Made by a program: the position numbers and the translations under genes. The notes under the pieces are model-generated. The model worked only from the letters and a program-made list of their open reading frames with translations, made no database searches and was not told the origin of the DNA. Of a stretch of 64,000 nucleotides of DNA, positions 23,009-30,299 are shown piece after piece (within the stretch, counting starts at the first letter, position 1; every line of letters begins with the position of its first letter). The DNA is from a phage. Where the stretch lies: sequence record PZ091942.1; one strand, 5' to 3'.

Positions 23009-23959
23009 ATGTCAATCTCCGCATCGACTGCTCCGGTAACACCATCAGAGGATTTTGGTGAGTCAGTGTTCAGAGGGCGAGCTTGTTTTGGTACTTTCAA
23101 CTGTCAGCATATGTATTCTGTTACAGACATTAACGGCGACAGTATCAATCGCTCAAACCTTCGTGACAGAACTTCAGAAATTGGAGTTATCAACTTCTGG
23201 CCTCACAACTTTTATGGCACACCAGCTAAAGATATCGAAAGAGCTTTAGTTGAAGCAACAGACATTTTTAACTCAATGTCTTGCTATAAAAACATGTTCT
23301 CTGTCACTTCGGTGAACTCAGTTGCCGTGAACCTTCGAGACCACCCAGCAGACAAGGTGTTTACTGGATTAATGACCCTCCGGAGTTATCTGGATGGGGA
23401 TTTTATGGGAATGGAGTTCCTTCAGGAAGGCGTTCAAGACAAGGAAGAGTTACTCAAGCGACAACGAATCGGCTTAGCTTTACGCTTAGCTGGTTTAAGT
23501 CGTAACTTCTTTGGTCGTTGGGATTATTCACACGATGTGGATACTGATGATGAATCAGCAGCGACCTATTTTAATGGTGACATGAGTGCAATTGCATTCT
23601 TGCCACTAGTCTGTACCACTGATGAATTTTCTGAAAACGTATGGGTTCAGAATGTGTTCGGTATTGACGATAACAGAGATGGTTATGTACGAAACCACAA
23701 TGACGGAGTTCTCCGCAGTATGGCTCGTCGTCGTGACCAAGACCCTGACTATTACGAAAGTATGAGTGAGTGGTTACGTCTCTGGTCAATGTGTGCAGGC
23801 CACAAACGTGAAGTATTAGATCAGCGTATGGACAGAATTACTGTTCAAAGTTTTATTGAACGTCTGATGCAAGCAGTACCTTCCTCAATGACACCAGAAG
23901 AAGCTGGTGCCCGTGTTGTTTCCCTTTTTGATGAACTCGTGGAGTATTACAATGACTAA
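23009..23959 (+). CDS. hypothetical protein (316 aa)
   Basis: ORF track; AGAGG SD. Confidence 0.7.
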   Translation: MSISASTAPVTPSEDFGESVFRGRACFGTFNCQHMYSVTDINGDSINRSNLRDRTSEIGVINFWPHNFYGTPAKDIERALVEATDIFNSMSCYKNMFSVTSVNSVAVNLRDHPADKVFTGLMTLRSYLDGDFMGMEFLQEGVQDKEELLKRQRIGLALRLAGLSRNFFGRWDYSHDVDTDDESAATYFNGDMSAIAFLPLVCTTDEFSENVWVQNVFGIDDNRDGYVRNHNDGVLRSMARRRDQDPDYYESMSEWLRLWSMCAGHKREVLDQRMDRITVQSFIERLMQAVPSSMTPEEAGARVVSLFDELVEYYND

Positions 23960-24758
23960 GCGTGCTTTCCTTATTGGTTCTGACCCTGAAATGTTTGTTC
24001 GTACCGCTTCTGGTATTATCACCTCTGTGGCTGGTAAGCTGGGCTGTTCCAAAGATAACAAAATCGATCTGGCCCCTGATGTTCGTCTTCAAGAAGACAA
24101 CGTTCTGGCTGAGTTCGATATTAACCCACAGAAAGGGTTTGAAGCGTTTGATGATAACATCCAGCGTGGTATTGATCTGACCAACAAAGTTCTCCATGAA
24201 CGTGGTATGGAAGCTGCACTTGGGATTAGCTCCCATGTGTACACTTCTGAAGAGCTGGAATCATTCCACCCGTCAGCCTTCGTATTTGGCTGTACTCCTG
24301 ATTTCAACGCCTTCACTGGTCAGAAAAACCCATCTCCGGTAGCGACAGACAAAGGTCTGCGTACCGCTGGAGGTCACGTTCACCTCGGTGTTACTGGTAC
24401 ACTGGAAATTAGTCGTCAGACTCAGATGATGCTGGGTGTGCTGTGCGATTACTTCCTGTCACTTCCAGCGGTTGTGATGGACAAGGACACTCGTCGTAAA
24501 GAGCTTTACGGCAAGGCATCTGCGATTCGTTATAAAGATTACGGTATTGAATATCGTTCTCTGTCAAACTTCTGGATTGGTGAACAGTCCACTCGTAAGT
24601 TTGTTTACGATCAAGTTGATAAGGTTATTCAGGGCTGTGACATGGAAACCCTCATGTCTCTGCATTCCCGTTTGCCTATCGAAAAGCTTCACAACATCAT
24701 CAACAGCAACGATGTTAAAGAAGCGGATAAGTTCTCCTCTCAACTTCAGATTATCTAA
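23952..24758 (+). CDS. carboxylate-amine ligase-like protein (GCS2/amidoligase-like, tentative)
   Basis: Track ORF 23907..24758 trimmed to ATG 23952; motifs LIGSDPEMF and GGHVHLG resemble the GxExE / HVHxG signatures of GCS2-type ligases. Confidence 0.5.
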   Translation: MTKRAFLIGSDPEMFVRTASGIITSVAGKLGCSKDNKIDLAPDVRLQEDNVLAEFDINPQKGFEAFDDNIQRGIDLTNKVLHERGMEAALGISSHVYTSEELESFHPSAFVFGCTPDFNAFTGQKNPSPVATDKGLRTAGGHVHLGVTGTLEISRQTQMMLGVLCDYFLSLPAVVMDKDTRRKELYGKASAIRYKDYGIEYRSLSNFWIGEQSTRKFVYDQVDKVIQGCDMETLMSLHSRLPIEKLHNIINSNDVKEADKFSSQLQII

Positions 24759-24767
24759 GGTGTTATC

Positions 24768-25394
24768 GTGAGCCTGTTAAGAGATTTTCAGCATTATTAT
24801 TGCGGAACATGGATTGCCCAACGTGCAGAACGAGGGATTAATCTCCCTCTGTATGTACTCAACGTAAGCCAACCAAGCCGCTTTGGGGAAGATGACTTCT
24901 CCCACGAAGCCGAAATGGCCTTGACCTTTGAAGTTGAACGCTGGTCTAAGAACTCCGAAGGGCAGTTTGAGCGACAAGTTGTTCAGGGTATCCCTGTGTT
25001 TGATCAGAGTCTGATTCTGGAATCTCCAGATGTGGGCTATCTACAACATGGTAACAACATGGTAAGCTGGACTCATATCAACCCTGTTCGTCAGCGAGCT
25101 AAAGGTCTGATGGGGAACAAGCTGCGTGGTGCACCTCCTTCAATGGGACGTTCAATTCCGGGAGAGCTGGTGTATAACCTGTTCAACCCTGACTTTGAAG
25201 GTCTGGTTACTCGCTTCATCTACATTAACCCTGTTGATGGTAAAGTTTATTACAAAGGGGCGCTTGTAGGTCAAGTTGATCTTTCTGCTGGTTACGGCGA
25301 CAACGGTCGTCAATCTTTAAATCTTCTGGAGAAGTTCAAGCATATTTCTTCAGACCTGTCATCATATAATGTAGAGTTGGTGGAAACGTTATGA
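24768..25394 (+). CDS. hypothetical protein (208 aa)
   Basis: ORF track (GTG start, AAGGTG SD). Confidence 0.55.
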   Translation: MSLLRDFQHYYCGTWIAQRAERGINLPLYVLNVSQPSRFGEDDFSHEAEMALTFEVERWSKNSEGQFERQVVQGIPVFDQSLILESPDVGYLQHGNNMVSWTHINPVRQRAKGLMGNKLRGAPPSMGRSIPGELVYNLFNPDFEGLVTRFIYINPVDGKVYYKGALVGQVDLSAGYGDNGRQSLNLLEKFKHISSDLSSYNVELVETL

Positions 25395-26491
25395 CAACCG
25401 TAGCACAAGTTTTTGGATACCGTAATGCTCGTCTGGCTGAGCCGCACCCAAGCATCGCTTTTCAGTGTGGTATTGGCATCGAGCTGGAAGTTGAAGGAAC
25501 CTCTGAAATTGATGCAGACCTTTGGGTTTGTACTGAAGATGGTTCACTTCGTGATGGCTGTGAGATGGTTTGCGCACGGCCTTACAACGGTGTAGAATTG
25601 CTTCGTGCTATTAACAATCTGAGTGAAGCAGTACAAGACTCTGAAGCTGAAGGGACTTGGCGCTGCTCTACTCATGTTCATATGGATATGCGTGACGCTG
25701 ATAGTAACATCCTGAAGAAAGTAATTCTTGGATGGACGTTCTATGAAAAGATGATGTTCAAATGTTCTGGATACCATCGCTATCGTAGCAACTTCTGTCC
25801 TGCCTTTGCTGTTGTTCAAGCACAGGTAATGAATGCTTCCGCAGCGTTCAACCGAGATGGTGAAGCCTTCTTCAACACTCTTGTTAATAGCTGGGACAAG
25901 TACACCTCCCTTAACCTATTACCTCTGGCTCAGTTTGGTTCTGTTGAGTTTCGTATCTCAGAGCCGAAGTGGAAGAAAAGCCAACTCCTGAATCTGGTCA
26001 ACCGCTTCTTGGTTCTCAAGAAACTGGCTGTTGAATATGCAGATTTGGACAATGAAGCATACGTTGAGAAACTGAATGAGCTTCGCTTCGCTCCTATGAT
26101 TCAGTATCTACCTCTGGACTACACGCCTAATGATAATGATCTTACTGAAGGTTATCGTTTGGCTCGTGACATTCTGTTCTGTCGTGAACGTTCGGTTACT
26201 CTGGTTGGTCGTGTTCGTGTACAACAGACTGGCCCTGATGGTGAAGTCCTTATCAACTTGCGTGATATGGGTGACTTCTATGGTTTCTTGGGATATGTAC
26301 GGGGTAATGCCAACTCTGTTTACGAAGAGATCATGACATATTACACCCCTCAGATTGAAAACACTCGAATCGCAACGGTTCGTGAAATTCGTCACATGTT
26401 TACTTTGATGCGTGAATCAGGTAGCAGTGATGATAACGTCACTGGTTATATTCCAGACCATCTGGAAATGCAATTAGAACGACTGCTGTAA
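25391..26491 (+). CDS. GS/GCS2-like amidoligase
   Basis: ORF track; motifs GIGIELEVEG, EDGSLRDGCE, STHVHMD, GSVEFR typical of glutamine-synthetase-fold carboxylate-amine ligases. Confidence 0.6.
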   Translation: MTTVAQVFGYRNARLAEPHPSIAFQCGIGIELEVEGTSEIDADLWVCTEDGSLRDGCEMVCARPYNGVELLRAINNLSEAVQDSEAEGTWRCSTHVHMDMRDADSNILKKVILGWTFYEKMMFKCSGYHRYRSNFCPAFAVVQAQVMNASAAFNRDGEAFFNTLVNSWDKYTSLNLLPLAQFGSVEFRISEPKWKKSQLLNLVNRFLVLKKLAVEYADLDNEAYVEKLNELRFAPMIQYLPLDYTPNDNDLTEGYRLARDILFCRERSVTLVGRVRVQQTGPDGEVLINLRDMGDFYGFLGYVRGNANSVYEEIMTYYTPQIENTRIATVREIRHMFTLMRESGSSDDNVTGYIPDHLEMQLERLL

Positions 26492-26568
26492 CACAATGGG
26501 CGCTCTGATAAAGGGCGCATTTAAAGGTTAATTAGATGAAAGGGTTTACCCTTCAGGTGGATTAGAAA

Positions 26569-28602
26569 ATTTGTGGTATCGTATTAGCTGGGGGCAACAT
26601 GACCTCCACAGACTTAGACGTATTCAACCAGCTTCTGTATGCCGGAGTCTTCCGTGGTCAGCACTCAACTGGTGTGTTCGGTCAGCGTAAAAGTGATGCA
26701 AGAGTGTTTTCTTATAAAGAAGCACTTCCTTCTTATGCTTTCATGCTTCAGACAGAGTACACGAATATTACTAAGGGGCTTACGAACTATGTAGTTCCTC
26801 CAGCGTGGATTGTTGGTCATAGCCGACATGCCACTCGTGGCGCTGTCAATGCTCGAAATGCTCACCCGTTCTCTCATGGTGACATTACTCTGGTTCACAA
26901 TGGTACATTGATGGACCAAGAGCTGTTACCTGACCATAAGAACTTCGAAGTTGATAGCGAAAACATCTGTCATTCAATCAACACCATTGGTGCAGCAGAG
27001 ACTATCCAGAAGTTGGATGGTGCGTTCACTTTAATCTGGCATGATGCCAAAGACAATACTCTGCATATCATTCGTAACGATGAACGTCCTTTCCATCTGG
27101 CCCGTTGTGGTCTGGATTGGTTTGGTGCTTCTGAAGAAGATATGTTGATGTGGATTCTTAATCGTTCCAAGTCACACAAGAACCGTATCAATGATCACTT
27201 TGAATGTAAAGTGGGAACTGAATACATCTTTGATTTGTCTGGCAACCGTATGACTCTGACTCAAGAGGTGGAGCACAAGCTTCCGGTTTTTACGGTAACG
27301 AGTCGCTGGGGCGGCTATTACTCGAACTCCTCTCTATATCAGAACCAACAGACAAACAAATCAAGCAGCAGCACAAGCGACATTTACGGAAACAAAGACG
27401 ACAAGCCCGGCGTGACAAGCGGGGACATTCGCCGTCGTAAAGCGATTGAAGATCAGAATAAACTGGCTGCCGATCGTGGTCTTCCATATCGTCGTGATGG
27501 TCGTGTGGATATCATCCCTCACGAGTTCCATGCTTACAACAACACTGACCGTGGTAAGATGGTTGGTTATATTTATGATGATGCTGCTCAAGAATATGTT
27601 GAGGGTGATGTTCATAATGTAGCCAAGAGTGAGTACTTGAAGGCTCTCGAAAACCCAAAGGTAGTGTATCGCGGGACAGTTGCTTGTATCTCCGAAGTGG
27701 ACAGTATGATTCGCCTCGTACTCACTTCAGGGCTGTTTGTTGATGCTACCGATAAGGAGCCTCAAAGCACTACCGCTGATTTTGATGATGATATCCCTTT
27801 TGATTTAGAAGACTCCTTCATCACTAAGAATGGTGTGGAAGTCACTCGTAAGTTCTGGGAATCTCATTCTCATGGTGATTGTGGCGGTTGTGACAAGCAC
27901 ATTGAATGGAAAGATGCTAAGAAAGCTGTGTTCGCTTACCAAGCATATTGGCATCCGGCCTGTTTCGAAGCATTGTCCAAACCATCGGAAGAAGATGAAG
28001 ACATCCCTTTAGGTGTCTGTGCTGTGTGTGGCAATGTTAAAACTGATTTCGAGTTTGATAACGAAATGAGTAAACTTCGTGGTGAAGATATTTGTTATGT
28101 CTGTGCCAAAGAAATCAAAGACAAAGTGACTAACACTACATTGTCTGAAGGTTACATTTGGACTAAAGCAGTTGACACAACTAACCCACGCCGCCCTGAA
28201 GTAGCAGTTCGTGTTGATCAGCGTATGCTTAGCCGGATGATCGTAATGGTTAGCTCAGCTAAGCGTTCTGGAGACATTGAACTGTCTGATGTTCCTAATT
28301 CTTATTTGGAGAAACGTGGTGGTGATACTTATGCCATCTCTGTTTATGGTCCAAAGAATGCCCCAAAGGAGGTGCCCGCTGAGAAAGCGGAAACATTTCC
28401 AGAAAAACAAACAACTCTCCGAAAAACAGTTGTCAGTTACGATGGACAGCGAACAGCTGAGTTCACAAAAGCCCTCTGGACTTCAATTGGGTTTTGTGCA
28501 GTCTGTTATAAACAAATTCCGTGGCGTGATGCAGAAGTTTGCTCACTAAACAAAGAAAACAGGGTGATCTGTAATTCAGATTACTGTAAAGGTAAACATT
28601 AA
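26569..28602 (+). CDS. class-II glutamine amidotransferase domain protein with Cys-rich C-terminal region
   Basis: Track ORF 26599..28602; GHSRHATRG...NAHPF...HNG motifs; in-frame upstream codons ATT-TGT-GGT-ATC-GTA encode the canonical CGIV N-terminus, so start placed at ATT 26569 (AGGTGG SD 8 nt upstream); C-terminal half has several CxxC pairs. Confidence 0.7.
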   Translation: MCGIVLAGGNMTSTDLDVFNQLLYAGVFRGQHSTGVFGQRKSDARVFSYKEALPSYAFMLQTEYTNITKGLTNYVVPPAWIVGHSRHATRGAVNARNAHPFSHGDITLVHNGTLMDQELLPDHKNFEVDSENICHSINTIGAAETIQKLDGAFTLIWHDAKDNTLHIIRNDERPFHLARCGLDWFGASEEDMLMWILNRSKSHKNRINDHFECKVGTEYIFDLSGNRMTLTQEVEHKLPVFTVTSRWGGYYSNSSLYQNQQTNKSSSSTSDIYGNKDDKPGVTSGDIRRRKAIEDQNKLAADRGLPYRRDGRVDIIPHEFHAYNNTDRGKMVGYIYDDAAQEYVEGDVHNVAKSEYLKALENPKVVYRGTVACISEVDSMIRLVLTSGLFVDATDKEPQSTTADFDDDIPFDLEDSFITKNGVEVTRKFWESHSHGDCGGCDKHIEWKDAKKAVFAYQAYWHPACFEALSKPSEEDEDIPLGVCAVCGNVKTDFEFDNEMSKLRGEDICYVCAKEIKDKVTNTTLSEGYIWTKAVDTTNPRRPEVAVRVDQRMLSRMIVMVSSAKRSGDIELSDVPNSYLEKRGGDTYAISVYGPKNAPKEVPAEKAETFPEKQTTLRKTVVSYDGQRTAEFTKALWTSIGFCAVCYKQIPWRDAEVCSLNKENRVICNSDYCKGKH

Positions 28603-28613
28603 GAGGTGAAGTT

Positions 28614-28847
28614 ATGGAAGTTCGTAAATTGATGTTGGATAACGTTGTAACCACTCGACGTATCCCAATGACAAGCACAGGATGTGACAACCTTCGAGCT
28701 ATTCAGAAATGGATGCAAGAGGGTATTGGGGGACTGGTTAACTCTCCAGTTGAAATTCCTTTCCCAACCGTTATCAACAACGTGTTGGCTGACTATGTGA
28801 AATTGAAGGGGATTAAAGTTGAGCCTCATGTCAAGCAAGGGAGCTAA
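28614..28847 (+). CDS. hypothetical protein
   Basis: ORF track; GAGGTGA SD. Confidence 0.55.
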   Translation: MEVRKLMLDNVVTTRRIPMTSTGCDNLRAIQKWMQEGIGGLVNSPVEIPFPTVINNVLADYVKLKGIKVEPHVKQGS

Positions 28848-29051: not shown

Positions 29052-30299
29052 ATGACTACTCGTATCCGTGTTCTTCCGTATGGCCCTTCTGATTCTGTTA
29101 ACGCTCTGGTAACTGCCATTAATGATACTATCCGTGATGAACGTATCAACGCTAACGTAATGGGTCTTCTTTCAGAGAACAGCCGCTGGCGTTCTCGTGA
29201 AGGTGATGTGGTTGTGAACTACGGGAACCGTCGCTATCCTGAATCATTCTTTGGTTCTGCAACTGTTCTGAACAGCACAGCATCTCTGCATATGGCAGCG
29301 AACAAGCGTCGTGCTTTTAGCGTGATGGACCAAGCAGGTGTTAAAACAGTTGAATATACAGATGTTCAATCAACTGCTCAAGAGTGGTCAAACTCTGGCA
29401 ATATTGTGTATGAGCGTCATGAACTGACTGGTCACTCTGGTTCAGGCATTGTTGTTGTAGAGCCTCGTGATTCGGTTGGTCAAGCTGAACTGTACACCAA
29501 AGGTATCCTAGGCCCACGTCGTGAATGGCGTGTCCATGTGTTCAAAGGTGCTATCACCTATGTTCAGAAAAAGATTCGTCGTAACGGTTATCGTGAAGAC
29601 CCTAACTATCGTGAAGATGTTCGTAACCATCACACTGGTTGGGTTTACTCAAGTTCCTTCACAGACGTTCCGAACGACACCTCTCTGATCAACGCAGTGA
29701 AAGCTGTTGAATCAATGGGTCTGGATTTCGGTGCAGTTGATATCATCACCAAAGGTCAAGAAGCATGGGTACTGGAAGTTAATACAGCACCGGGCCTAAC
29801 TGGCACAACTCTGGATATCTACCGTCATAATATCCTTGAGTTTGTTAAAGCTCAAAACCCTCTTTATACTCCTCAGTATAAAGTAGTTTACCAGACTCCT
29901 GTTGAAGCTCCAATCGAAGACGGAGACGGTGAGTTGGTTGCTGACAGTGAAAGTGCTGACGATGAAAACTTTGCACTGGAAGGCCAAGTAGCACAACCGG
30001 TTGATTCAGTTGATGTGGTTCCTGAAGAAATGCAACTGGAAGGTCAGATGAATACTCAAACTATTCGTAATGCACCTACTGGTTATGTGTTGTCTCGTGG
30101 TTATTGGATTGCCAACATCCGTCATGTTCATAACAACCTGCAACCAAATGCAATGGCTGCCAATGTCATTCTGTTCTGTGATGGTCGTAACTTCTACCGC
30201 TCTGGTTGGAACGTTCCGGTCAATCCAGTCCAGATTCATAACCCTCGCAAGTTAGAATCTGTCAATGTTGAAGGTAGTGAAGTAGCAGTAACTCTGTAA
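29052..30299 (+). CDS. ATP-grasp family ligase
   Basis: ORF track; motifs HSGSGIVVVEP, DFGAVDII, EVNTAPGLTG matching ATP-grasp (RimK/GshB-like) fold. Confidence 0.7.
   Translation: MTTRIRVLPYGPSDSVNALVTAINDTIRDERINANVMGLLSENSRWRSREGDVVVNYGNRRYPESFFGSATVLNSTASLHMAANKRRAFSVMDQAGVKTVEYTDVQSTAQEWSNSGNIVYERHELTGHSGSGIVVVEPRDSVGQAELYTKGILGPRREWRVHVFKGAITYVQKKIRRNGYREDPNYREDVRNHHTGWVYSSSFTDVPNDTSLINAVKAVESMGLDFGAVDIITKGQEAWVLEVNTAPGLTGTTLDIYRHNILEFVKAQNPLYTPQYKVVYQTPVEAPIEDGDGELVADSESADDENFALEGQVAQPVDSVDVVPEEMQLEGQMNTQTIRNAPTGYVLSRGYWIANIRHVHNNLQPNAMAANVILFCDGRNFYRSGWNVPVNPVQIHNPRKLESVNVEGSEVAVTL

Follow-up and report, generated by a model that had tools for sequence, protein, structure and literature searches.

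A glutamine amidotransferase gene of phiEco32-like phages that very probably begins at AUU, within an invariant leader

An amidotransferase reading frame with a probable AUU start

The sequence analysed (the window) is a stretch of 64,000 nucleotides (nt) of phage DNA (record PZ091942.1); the region studied shares 98.9% identity with that of Escherichia phage ECBP2, a podovirus of the phiEco32 type (Gordonclarkvirinae, Suseptimavirus). Its subject is a gene for a predicted glutamine amidotransferase (GATase), whose open reading frame (ORF) runs TAG (26563–26565) AAA ATT (26569–26571) TGT (26572–26574) GGT ATC GTA TTA GCT GGG GGC AAC ATG (26599–26601). The first canonical start of the ORF, ATG 26599, lies ten codons past the ATT and would render a protein of 667 residues beginning MTSTDL; reading from the ATT gives 677 residues with the N-terminus (M)CGIVLAGGNMTSTDL. 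Since a TAG stands two codons before the ATT, no canonical in-frame start is available there, AAA and ATT being the only in-frame codons left. A sequence-only reading of the locus had remarked on the I-C-G-I-V codons upstream of the first ATG, on the lack of a Cys in the MTSTDL start, and on an AGGTGG placed 8 nt before the ATT, and had proposed initiation at AUU. These three features are present as described. The elements concerned are the following (family loci from viral, metagenomic and genome collections are designated by L numbers):

26555–26560, plus strand: Shine-Dalgarno (SD) sequence AGGTGG, 8 nt before the ATT; duplex with the 16S 3′ tail, −7.2 kcal/mol
26569–26571, plus strand: ATT, the probable initiation codon (AUU), at the position of the ATG in L009, L010 and L193
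26572–26574, plus strand: TGT, predicted nucleophile Cys1, invariant in the family and aligned with Cys1 of GlmS (1xff) and PurF (1ecb)
26569–28602, plus strand: glutamine amidotransferase, corrected coding sequence (CDS), 677 codons plus stop
26599–26601, plus strand: ATG at which the annotations of ECBP2 and SU7 begin; internal Met11 of the corrected protein

The predicted protein

The protein matched the Pfam models GATase_6 (55 bits, cut-off 27) and GATase_7 (25.8 bits, cut-off 25), with the GATase domain covering approximately residues 1–260. The C-terminal ∼413 residues (27361–28602) had no Pfam match, and no SIS, PRTase or Asn-synthase domain was found in them; with no synthase domain in this region, the GenBank names ‘L-glutamine-D-fructose-6-phosphate aminotransferase’, ‘glucosamine-6-P synthase’ and ‘purF’ are unsupported. 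The homologues end in CxxC…CxxC zinc-ribbon-like motifs.

Nearly all homologues at 32–71% identity start with MCG[IL]V, which the I-C-G-I-V block of the window matches. The closest of them, P0001, reads MCGIVLAGGNLGSSDLEIFNQLLY where the window reads ICGIVLAGGNMTSTDLDVFNQLLY (MCGIVLAGGNL… and ICGIVLAGGNM…, respectively). A search of the PDB with the single sequence gave no matches; only a family profile did so, placing the Cys encoded at 26572–26574 on residue 1 of mature Escherichia coli GlmS (1xff; E = 1e-15 to 1e-16) and on Cys1 of PurF (1ecb; E = 1e-10 to 1e-12). In an alignment of 18 sequences, the window included, R29-G30, H84-x-R86, H110-N111-G112 and D129-S130 were invariant. The spacing from Cys to the RG motif, which the sequence-only reading had equated with that of GlmS, was similar without being identical (27 residues here, 25 in GlmS). 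The domain models, the alignment of Cys1 and the presence of the Arg, Asn-Gly (oxyanion hole) and Asp residues all place the protein among the class-II (N-terminal nucleophile, Ntn) amidotransferases. Cys can occupy the first position of the mature protein only if translation begins at ATT 26569. To judge from its intact catalytic motifs, the gene at 26569–28602 would encode an active class-II glutamine amidotransferase.

The ratio of nonsynonymous to synonymous substitution rates (dN/dS) was 0.06 against phiEco32 (first 200 codons) and 0.05–0.10 across three genera, the 677-codon frame being intact. The orthologue of phage SU10 has been detected by mass spectrometry in a lysate concentrated with polyethylene glycol (9 peptides, 23.7% coverage; PMC4281155), so the gene is expressed.

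Conservation of the ATT and existing annotations

An alignment of orthologues, which the sequence-only reading had named as a check on its proposal, came out in favour of initiation at AUU. The ATT and the CGIV block were conserved in all 97 sequenced relatives in the phage collection (97/97), where the ATT-TGT codons and the leader preceding them showed 98.5–100% identity, the third position of Gly3 being the sole variable site. ATG 26599, in contrast, was not conserved: it is confined to Suseptimavirus, and CTC or CTG takes its place in Nieuwekanaalvirus and Kuravirus (KBNP1711, SR02, phiEco32). In the nine codons from the Cys to 26599, comparison with phiEco32 revealed four synonymous and no nonsynonymous differences; by this measure they are evolving as coding sequence. 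In the more distant relatives L009, L010 and L193, an ATG occupies exactly the position of the window's ATT, while L012 has an SD and spacing identical to those of the window's ATT start. AUU 26569 is very probably the physiological start of the amidotransferase, its position being shown, on comparative grounds, by homology together with the exclusion of alternatives; the catalytic motifs are intact and the ATT is conserved.

The expectation that annotation pipelines would miss such a start held for ECBP2 and SU7, which use ATG 26599, and for KBNP1711 and SR02, whose annotated starts are non-homologous GTGs 45 and 26 codons past the ATT. It did not hold for phiEco32 (EU330206, phi32_83), SU10 (SU10_085) or Bas88 (Bas88_0074), whose curated GenBank records have the CDS beginning exactly on the ATT, as placed by expert annotators; the start call is therefore not new. 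Among 60 listed relatives out of the 97, nine had a CDS reaching the leader. In the literature covered, which did not include the 2008 phiEco32 paper, no text was found that discusses initiation at the ATT, and none on the mini-ORF, the invariance of the leader or the pattern described below for the family. The present analysis adds two things for which no earlier description was found: a leader without variation that contains a mini-ORF, and a pattern of hairpin, SD and AUU or AUC (AUY) start that recurs across the family.

An invariant leader with a mini-ORF

Upstream of the ATT lie several elements that the sequence-only reading had not mentioned, namely a mini-ORF opening at ATG 26536, its weak SD, a 5-bp hairpin, and the invariance of positions 26522–26573:

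26522–26573, plus strand: invariant leader of 52 nt, in Suseptimavirus, Nieuwekanaalvirus and Kuravirus
26523–26527, plus strand: weak SD AAAGG, 8 nt before the mini-ORF ATG; duplex, −3.8 kcal/mol
26536–26565, plus strand: mini-ORF of nine codons, ATG AAA GGG TTT ACC CTT CAG GTG GAT TAG (MKGFTLQVD*)
26540–26553, plus strand: 5-bp hairpin AAGGG-UUUA-CCCUU (26540–26544 pairing with 26549–26553), directly 5′ of the SD and ending 16 nt before the ATT

The leader was delimited by aligning 3 kb of 12 distinct loci, which represent the three genera; in this alignment the window and phiEco32 are 71% identical and 45% of the columns are invariant. Its 52 nt form the longest invariant run of this alignment, the second longest being 14 nt. 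It takes in the mini-ORF SD, the mini-ORF, the hairpin, AGGTGG and TAG and extends through AAA ATT to the second base of the Cys codon, and variation at third codon positions resumes directly 3′ of it. The mini-ORF is in frame with the GATase, stops 3 nt before the ATT and is invariant in all relatives.

A scan of both strands of the leader against Rfam gave as its best match TLS-PK6, on the opposite strand, with 18 bits against a gathering score of 44; no covariance model for glutamine riboswitches or other known cis-regulatory RNA families matched the leader. Its minimum free energy was no better than that of shuffled sequences (z = 0.06), so a stable riboswitch-like fold is unsupported. A promoter was rejected as the cause of the invariance: no sigma-70-like site was found, and the leader does not fit the phiEco32 gp36 promoter consensus tAATGTAtA (PMC8948821). 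The promoter and terminator table of SU10 has no entry between CDS86 and CDS85, and no second copy of the leader motif was found in the window.

The leader looks composite when set beside its more distant relatives. Its 5′ half (TTTAAAGGTTAATTAG-ATG) resembles the GATase initiation region of relatives starting with ATG, the counterparts being AATTTAAAGG-N8-ATG TGT in L193 and TTTAAATGTAAATTAG in L009 and L010. The 3′ half (hairpin, SD, ATTAG, AAA, ATT) is shared with two ATT-type relatives, L123 and L180. The hairpin of L180 is that of the window with one extra compensated pair, and the homologous …GAT TAG of this locus, which matches the 3′ part of the mini-ORF, is the end of a real upstream gene. 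Either a 33-nt in-frame insertion or a ∼21-nt insertion of the hairpin fits these short alignments as the origin of the leader. As a separate observation, the box TTTAAAGGTTAATTAG (26520–26535) corresponds to TTTAAATGTAAA(A/T)TAG in L009 (1473–1488) and L010 (1475–1489); this element of the ATG-type relatives resembles the gp36 consensus, of which the window version has two core mismatches (PMC8948821).

Start codons across the family

The amidotransferase family is essentially restricted to phages: only 16 loci were found in 185,579 cellular genomes, mostly on short contigs or contigs of metagenome-assembled genomes. Placing the Cys1 codon was possible for 172 loci of the viral and metagenomic collections, among which there were 135 unique contexts. 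Immediately before Cys1, 104 of these had ATG, 24 had ATT (12 of them in the phiEco32 group), four had ATC and two had TTG; none had ATA. The remaining context reads ATG-TGC-TGT; it belongs to L119 (IMG/VR 3300025276 / Ga0208814), where ATG TGC TGT GGA encodes M-C-C-G, with two Cys codons in succession. Genome contigs contributed one further ATT, one TTG and one GTG. Starts of all three kinds (TTG, GTG and ATT) occur in L177–L180, which are scaffolds of 560–924 nt in the assembly of Herbiconiux daphne CPCC 203386; these are short contigs of several phiEco32-like phages and probably a contamination. They show that the start codon is labile within the phiEco32-like clade.

Outside the phiEco32 group, 13 of the 16 contexts with ATT or ATC had an in-frame stop upstream and no canonical start. 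In a neighbour-joining tree these isoleucine-codon (Ile-type) starts were scattered, requiring about 15 parsimony changes, a rough count since the deep branches are poorly resolved. In close sister pairs with ATT and ATG the whole upstream region differed, rather than the start codon by a point mutation. ATT persists in many lineages at 35–40% identity, always with strong SDs. SD pairing was stronger for Ile-type starts than for the others (mean −8.7 versus −7.3 kcal/mol; one-sided P = 0.008), and their spacers were A-rich, with the consensus GGAGGAt.atAAA-ATT-TGTGG. An identical 13-mer, AGGAGATGAGAAA, is found about 13 nt before the ATT or ATC in L041, L044 and L082, the proteins of which are only ∼40% identical; L092 has AGGGGATGAGTAA. 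This arrangement puts an out-of-frame AUG directly behind the SD, where it opens an ORF of 6–7 codons that overlaps the start.

Scanning IMG/VR for AAATTTGTGGNATHGTNGG rendered 22 matches. Nine belonged to the family and had long ORFs, with SD pairing of −9.2 to −11.6 kcal/mol. Among the other 13, ten had no usable SD and a short or broken frame, L197 and L201 lay inside longer unrelated ORFs, and L203 had an SD-like element (−8.4 kcal/mol) before a frame of nine amino acids. A search of the window for other ORFs starting with AUU, AUC or AUA provided no convincing candidate.

Hairpin position and translational coupling

Of 23 Ile-type contexts, 15 had a stem of at least 5 bp ending 12–18 nt before the start; most of these lay at −17 to −14, and most had a loop of 4 nt. 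By the same criterion, hairpins were found in 6/30 ATG-type starts that likewise stand apart from an upstream gene (P = 0.001) and in 6/68 coupled ATG-type starts. Under a looser definition, 16 of the 23 Ile-type contexts had a hairpin, while shuffling the upstream 40 nt gave 4.4 ± 1.8, with none of 500 shuffles reaching the observed value. Since stems from different lineages have unrelated sequences, what is conserved is the fold and the place where it lies; the AAGGG-UUUA-CCCUU of the window is one instance of this family hairpin.

Translational coupling was ruled out as a general cause of Ile-codon starts, since the tightly coupled starts are those of ATG type: an upstream ORF ended within −4 to +12 nt of 63/98 ATG-type starts, compared with 4/15 Ile-type starts.

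Proposed initiation at AUU

AUU and AUC are non-canonical for initiation factor 3 (IF3), which discriminates against them, and both are used by infC; their activity is a few percent of that of AUG in some systems, and is sensitive to temperature, nutrient state and guanosine tetraphosphate (ppGpp) (PMC5499595). In the phage gene, the 30S subunit would be held by the AGGUGG sequence 8 nt upstream of the AUU, which initiator formylmethionyl-tRNA would then decode. Deformylase and methionine aminopeptidase would remove the formylmethionine and expose Cys1, as in GlmS, E. coli PurF and AsnB. The AUU probably sets a low or physiology-dependent level of expression. Compensation for this weak codon, or its tuning, may come from the strong SD together with the A-rich spacer and the hairpin next to it; plausibly, the SD and the hairpin would prolong the residence of the 30S subunit or protect a poorly translated mRNA.

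The use of ATT and ATC in this family, never of ATA and rarely of GTG or TTG, is suggestive of selection for a start against which IF3 discriminates, which we put forward as a hypothesis. More tentatively still, and with the balance of probability against it, the unit of hairpin, strong SD, A-rich spacer and AUY might be a dedicated, transferable translation-control module of the family, elaborated in phiEco32-like phages into a nucleotide-perfect leader with a mini-ORF. If that were true, the module would tie synthesis of a glutamine-hydrolysing enzyme to the initiation fidelity or the physiology of the host (IF3 level, ppGpp, temperature), or to reinitiation after the mini-ORF, and the recurrence of AUU and AUC over GUG, UUG and AUA would be selected, not accidental.

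Alternative explanations

Several observations weigh against AUU 26569 as the start, or leave part of the locus unaccounted for. AUU is inefficient; a system to which PMC5499595 refers gave about 5% of the AUG level. The SU10 proteomics gives no N-terminal peptides (PMC4281155), the start being placed by comparison. An SD and a start codon alone leave the invariance of all 52 leader nt unexplained. Lastly, a GGGGG before ATG 26599 (26588–26601) pairs with the anti-SD at −8.4 kcal/mol, more strongly than AGGTGG does; since it precedes that ATG, a minor internal product lacking Cys1 may be made from it in Suseptimavirus.

The most probable of the alternatives refines initiation at AUU rather than competing with it, the codon being fed mainly by the mini-ORF: ribosomes would start at AUG 26536, melt the hairpin, terminate at UAG 26563–26565 and, held by the AGGUGG within the mini-ORF, reinitiate 3 nt further on. 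Such coupling of termination and reinitiation is conceivable, although we consider it rather unlikely. In its favour, the mini-ORF is in frame, its stop lies 3 nt before the ATT, and 97 genomes show no variation in it. The upstream gene of L180, of at least 73 amino acids, ends at the homologous GAT TAG, likewise 3 nt before the ATT, and in L012, L167 and L091 the stop of an upstream gene lies 1 nt before it. The SD and ATG of the mini-ORF also resemble the GATase initiation region of L193, the closest ATG-type relative, which suggests that the mini-ORF was retained rather than made by chance. However, coupling is not general among Ile-type starts, as described above; L123 has the same GGATTAGAAAATT with no canonical upstream mini-ORF; and the mini-ORF SD is weak (−3.8 kcal/mol). 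The very invariance of the mini-ORF sequence means that coding constraint on it cannot be read.

It is very improbable that the annotated downstream starts (ATG 26599, and GTGs elsewhere) are right, so that the protein would lack Cys1 and be non-catalytic or have another role, with CGIV an untranslated relic. The G-rich SD-like element before ATG 26599 and the use of downstream starts in several GenBank and RefSeq records would fit such a reading. A relic, however, would need in-frame and purely synonymous drift (four synonymous changes, none nonsynonymous) across 97 genomes. The downstream starts are mutually non-homologous (10, 26 and 45 codons past the ATT), and ATG 26599 is missing from two of the three genera. 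The remaining catalytic residues are all invariant, and a start at Met11 would remove the first β-strand together with the nucleophile.

Even less probable is a start at AUG 26536 followed by readthrough of the UAG, which would render a pro-enzyme MKGFTLQVD-X-KI-CGIV… with a 12-residue propeptide cleaved to expose Cys1. ATG 26536 is in frame with the GATase with a single stop between them, and class-II amidotransferases with a cleaved propeptide exist (Bacillus subtilis PurF and the glutamate synthase GltS). Readthrough, however, would have to be efficient in wild E. coli hosts, and no suppressor tRNA is among the tRNAs of the window (tRNA-Arg(TCT) only). In L012 the upstream stop is in another frame, and L041, L123 and 11 others have a stop and no canonical start upstream. 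None of the family members aligned has a conserved propeptide. The open in-frame extension of propeptide-processed Ntn enzymes is thus absent: TAG 26563–26565 closes the frame, as in-frame stops do in 13 of the 16 other Ile-type loci.

That the change from ATG to ATT was the loss of a start codon in a decaying pseudogene, a reading prompted by AUU being a poor start codon (PMC5499595), is effectively refuted by the pattern of conservation: the 677-codon frame is intact with dN/dS of 0.05–0.10 across three genera, the SU10 protein was detected by mass spectrometry, and the ATT is kept in many lineages with strong SDs.

Two recoding events were also rejected by inspection. A −1 frameshift on A-AAA-UUU-G provides no shift into the GATase frame, and for a bypass of the T4 gene 60 type, no codon ahead of the Cys could serve as a landing site matching the take-off codon GAU.

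Genes and features around the amidotransferase gene

The amidotransferase gene is part of a gene cluster. Outside the leader, the following features were recorded in the window:

17927–18002: tRNA-Arg (anticodon TCT), the sole tRNA in the window
23907–24758: phiEco32-type COOH-NH2 ligase, in the same cluster as the amidotransferase
between the COOH-NH2 ligase and Amidoligase_2 genes in the cluster list: unassigned ORF
25391–26491: Amidoligase_2 protein, upstream neighbour of the amidotransferase, with its TAA stop at 26489–26491
26425–26444: terminator-like hairpin CAGTGATGATAACGTCACTG followed by GTTATATTCC, within the 3′ end of the amidoligase coding sequence
26500–26518, plus strand: stable hairpin, 9 nt past the amidoligase stop and 5′ of the invariant leader (ΔG −12.1 kcal/mol, z = −4.4)
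28614–28847: DUF7195 protein, downstream of the amidotransferase
29052–30299: RimK-like ATP-grasp enzyme, in the same cluster

The hairpin at 26500–26518 is kept in phiEco32 and KBNP1711 with altered stems (GCGCUCU/AGGGCGC versus GUGCCUC(U)/(A)GGGGCAC). AUUUAAA rather than a U-tract follows this hairpin, which could act as a weak terminator or a processing site or could stabilise the mRNA. The site equivalent to the hairpin at 26425–26444 is an annotated terminator in phage 4E8. A DUF7195 gene also adjoins the 49%-identity amidotransferase homologue in L194, and DUF7195 may belong to the cluster.

Significance and comparison with known systems

Most database records of this gene are mis-started and lack 10 to 45 codons, the catalytic Cys included; truncated proteins of this kind are spread through protein databases, and many are also misnamed GlmS or PurF. 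Because an obligatory Cys1 fixes the N-terminus of the family, non-canonical starts can be read in it from sequence alone. ATT or ATC is used in about one fifth of the contexts, accompanied by a strong SD that compensates and by a hairpin at a fixed position. About 100 coliphages, whose host is genetically tractable, have the AUU start fixed in a leader of perfect conservation. They offer a ready model of how weak start codons become usable, and of why a phage would want one.

To our knowledge, very few natural AUU starts are well supported in E. coli systems; the standard examples are infC and pcnB. In pcnB, encoding poly(A) polymerase I, the AUU start keeps a potentially harmful enzyme low; the phage gene would be alike if its AUU, too, limits expression. 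We know of no conserved mini-ORF or hairpin leader in pcnB.

A mature class-II enzyme needs Cys as residue 1, which GlmS, E. coli PurF and AsnB expose by removal of Met. The phage protein resembles GlmS and PurF in that its Cys aligns with theirs, Cys for Cys, and the catalytic motifs are kept; it differs in the start, AUU rather than AUG, and in having no SIS or PRTase synthase domain.

In infC, the E. coli gene for IF3, the AUU (AUC in some species) is, as in the phage gene, conserved across orthologues and served by an SD; IF3 discriminates against both codons (PMC5499595). The phage family shares the two codons of infC and never uses ATA. In infC, however, the AUU is the sensor of an autoregulatory loop, the product being IF3 itself, while the product of the phage gene is an amidotransferase; any dependence on IF3 would therefore be a read-out of the state of the host and not a feedback.

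For ebpA of Enterococcus faecalis, an ATT start is reported 120 bp upstream of the annotated ATG, the rare codon attenuating expression (PMC4447247). The two genes, ebpA and that of the phage, are alike in having a true, rare ATT start upstream of the ATG chosen by annotators. They differ in that ebpA is a Gram-positive pilus gene with experimental proof, while the start of the phage gene is supported by comparative evidence and the fixed position of Cys1. With an AUY at the homologous start position, a suitably spaced SD and conservation of the rare codon, the gene is best regarded as one more well-supported case in the small class of genes initiated at AUU.

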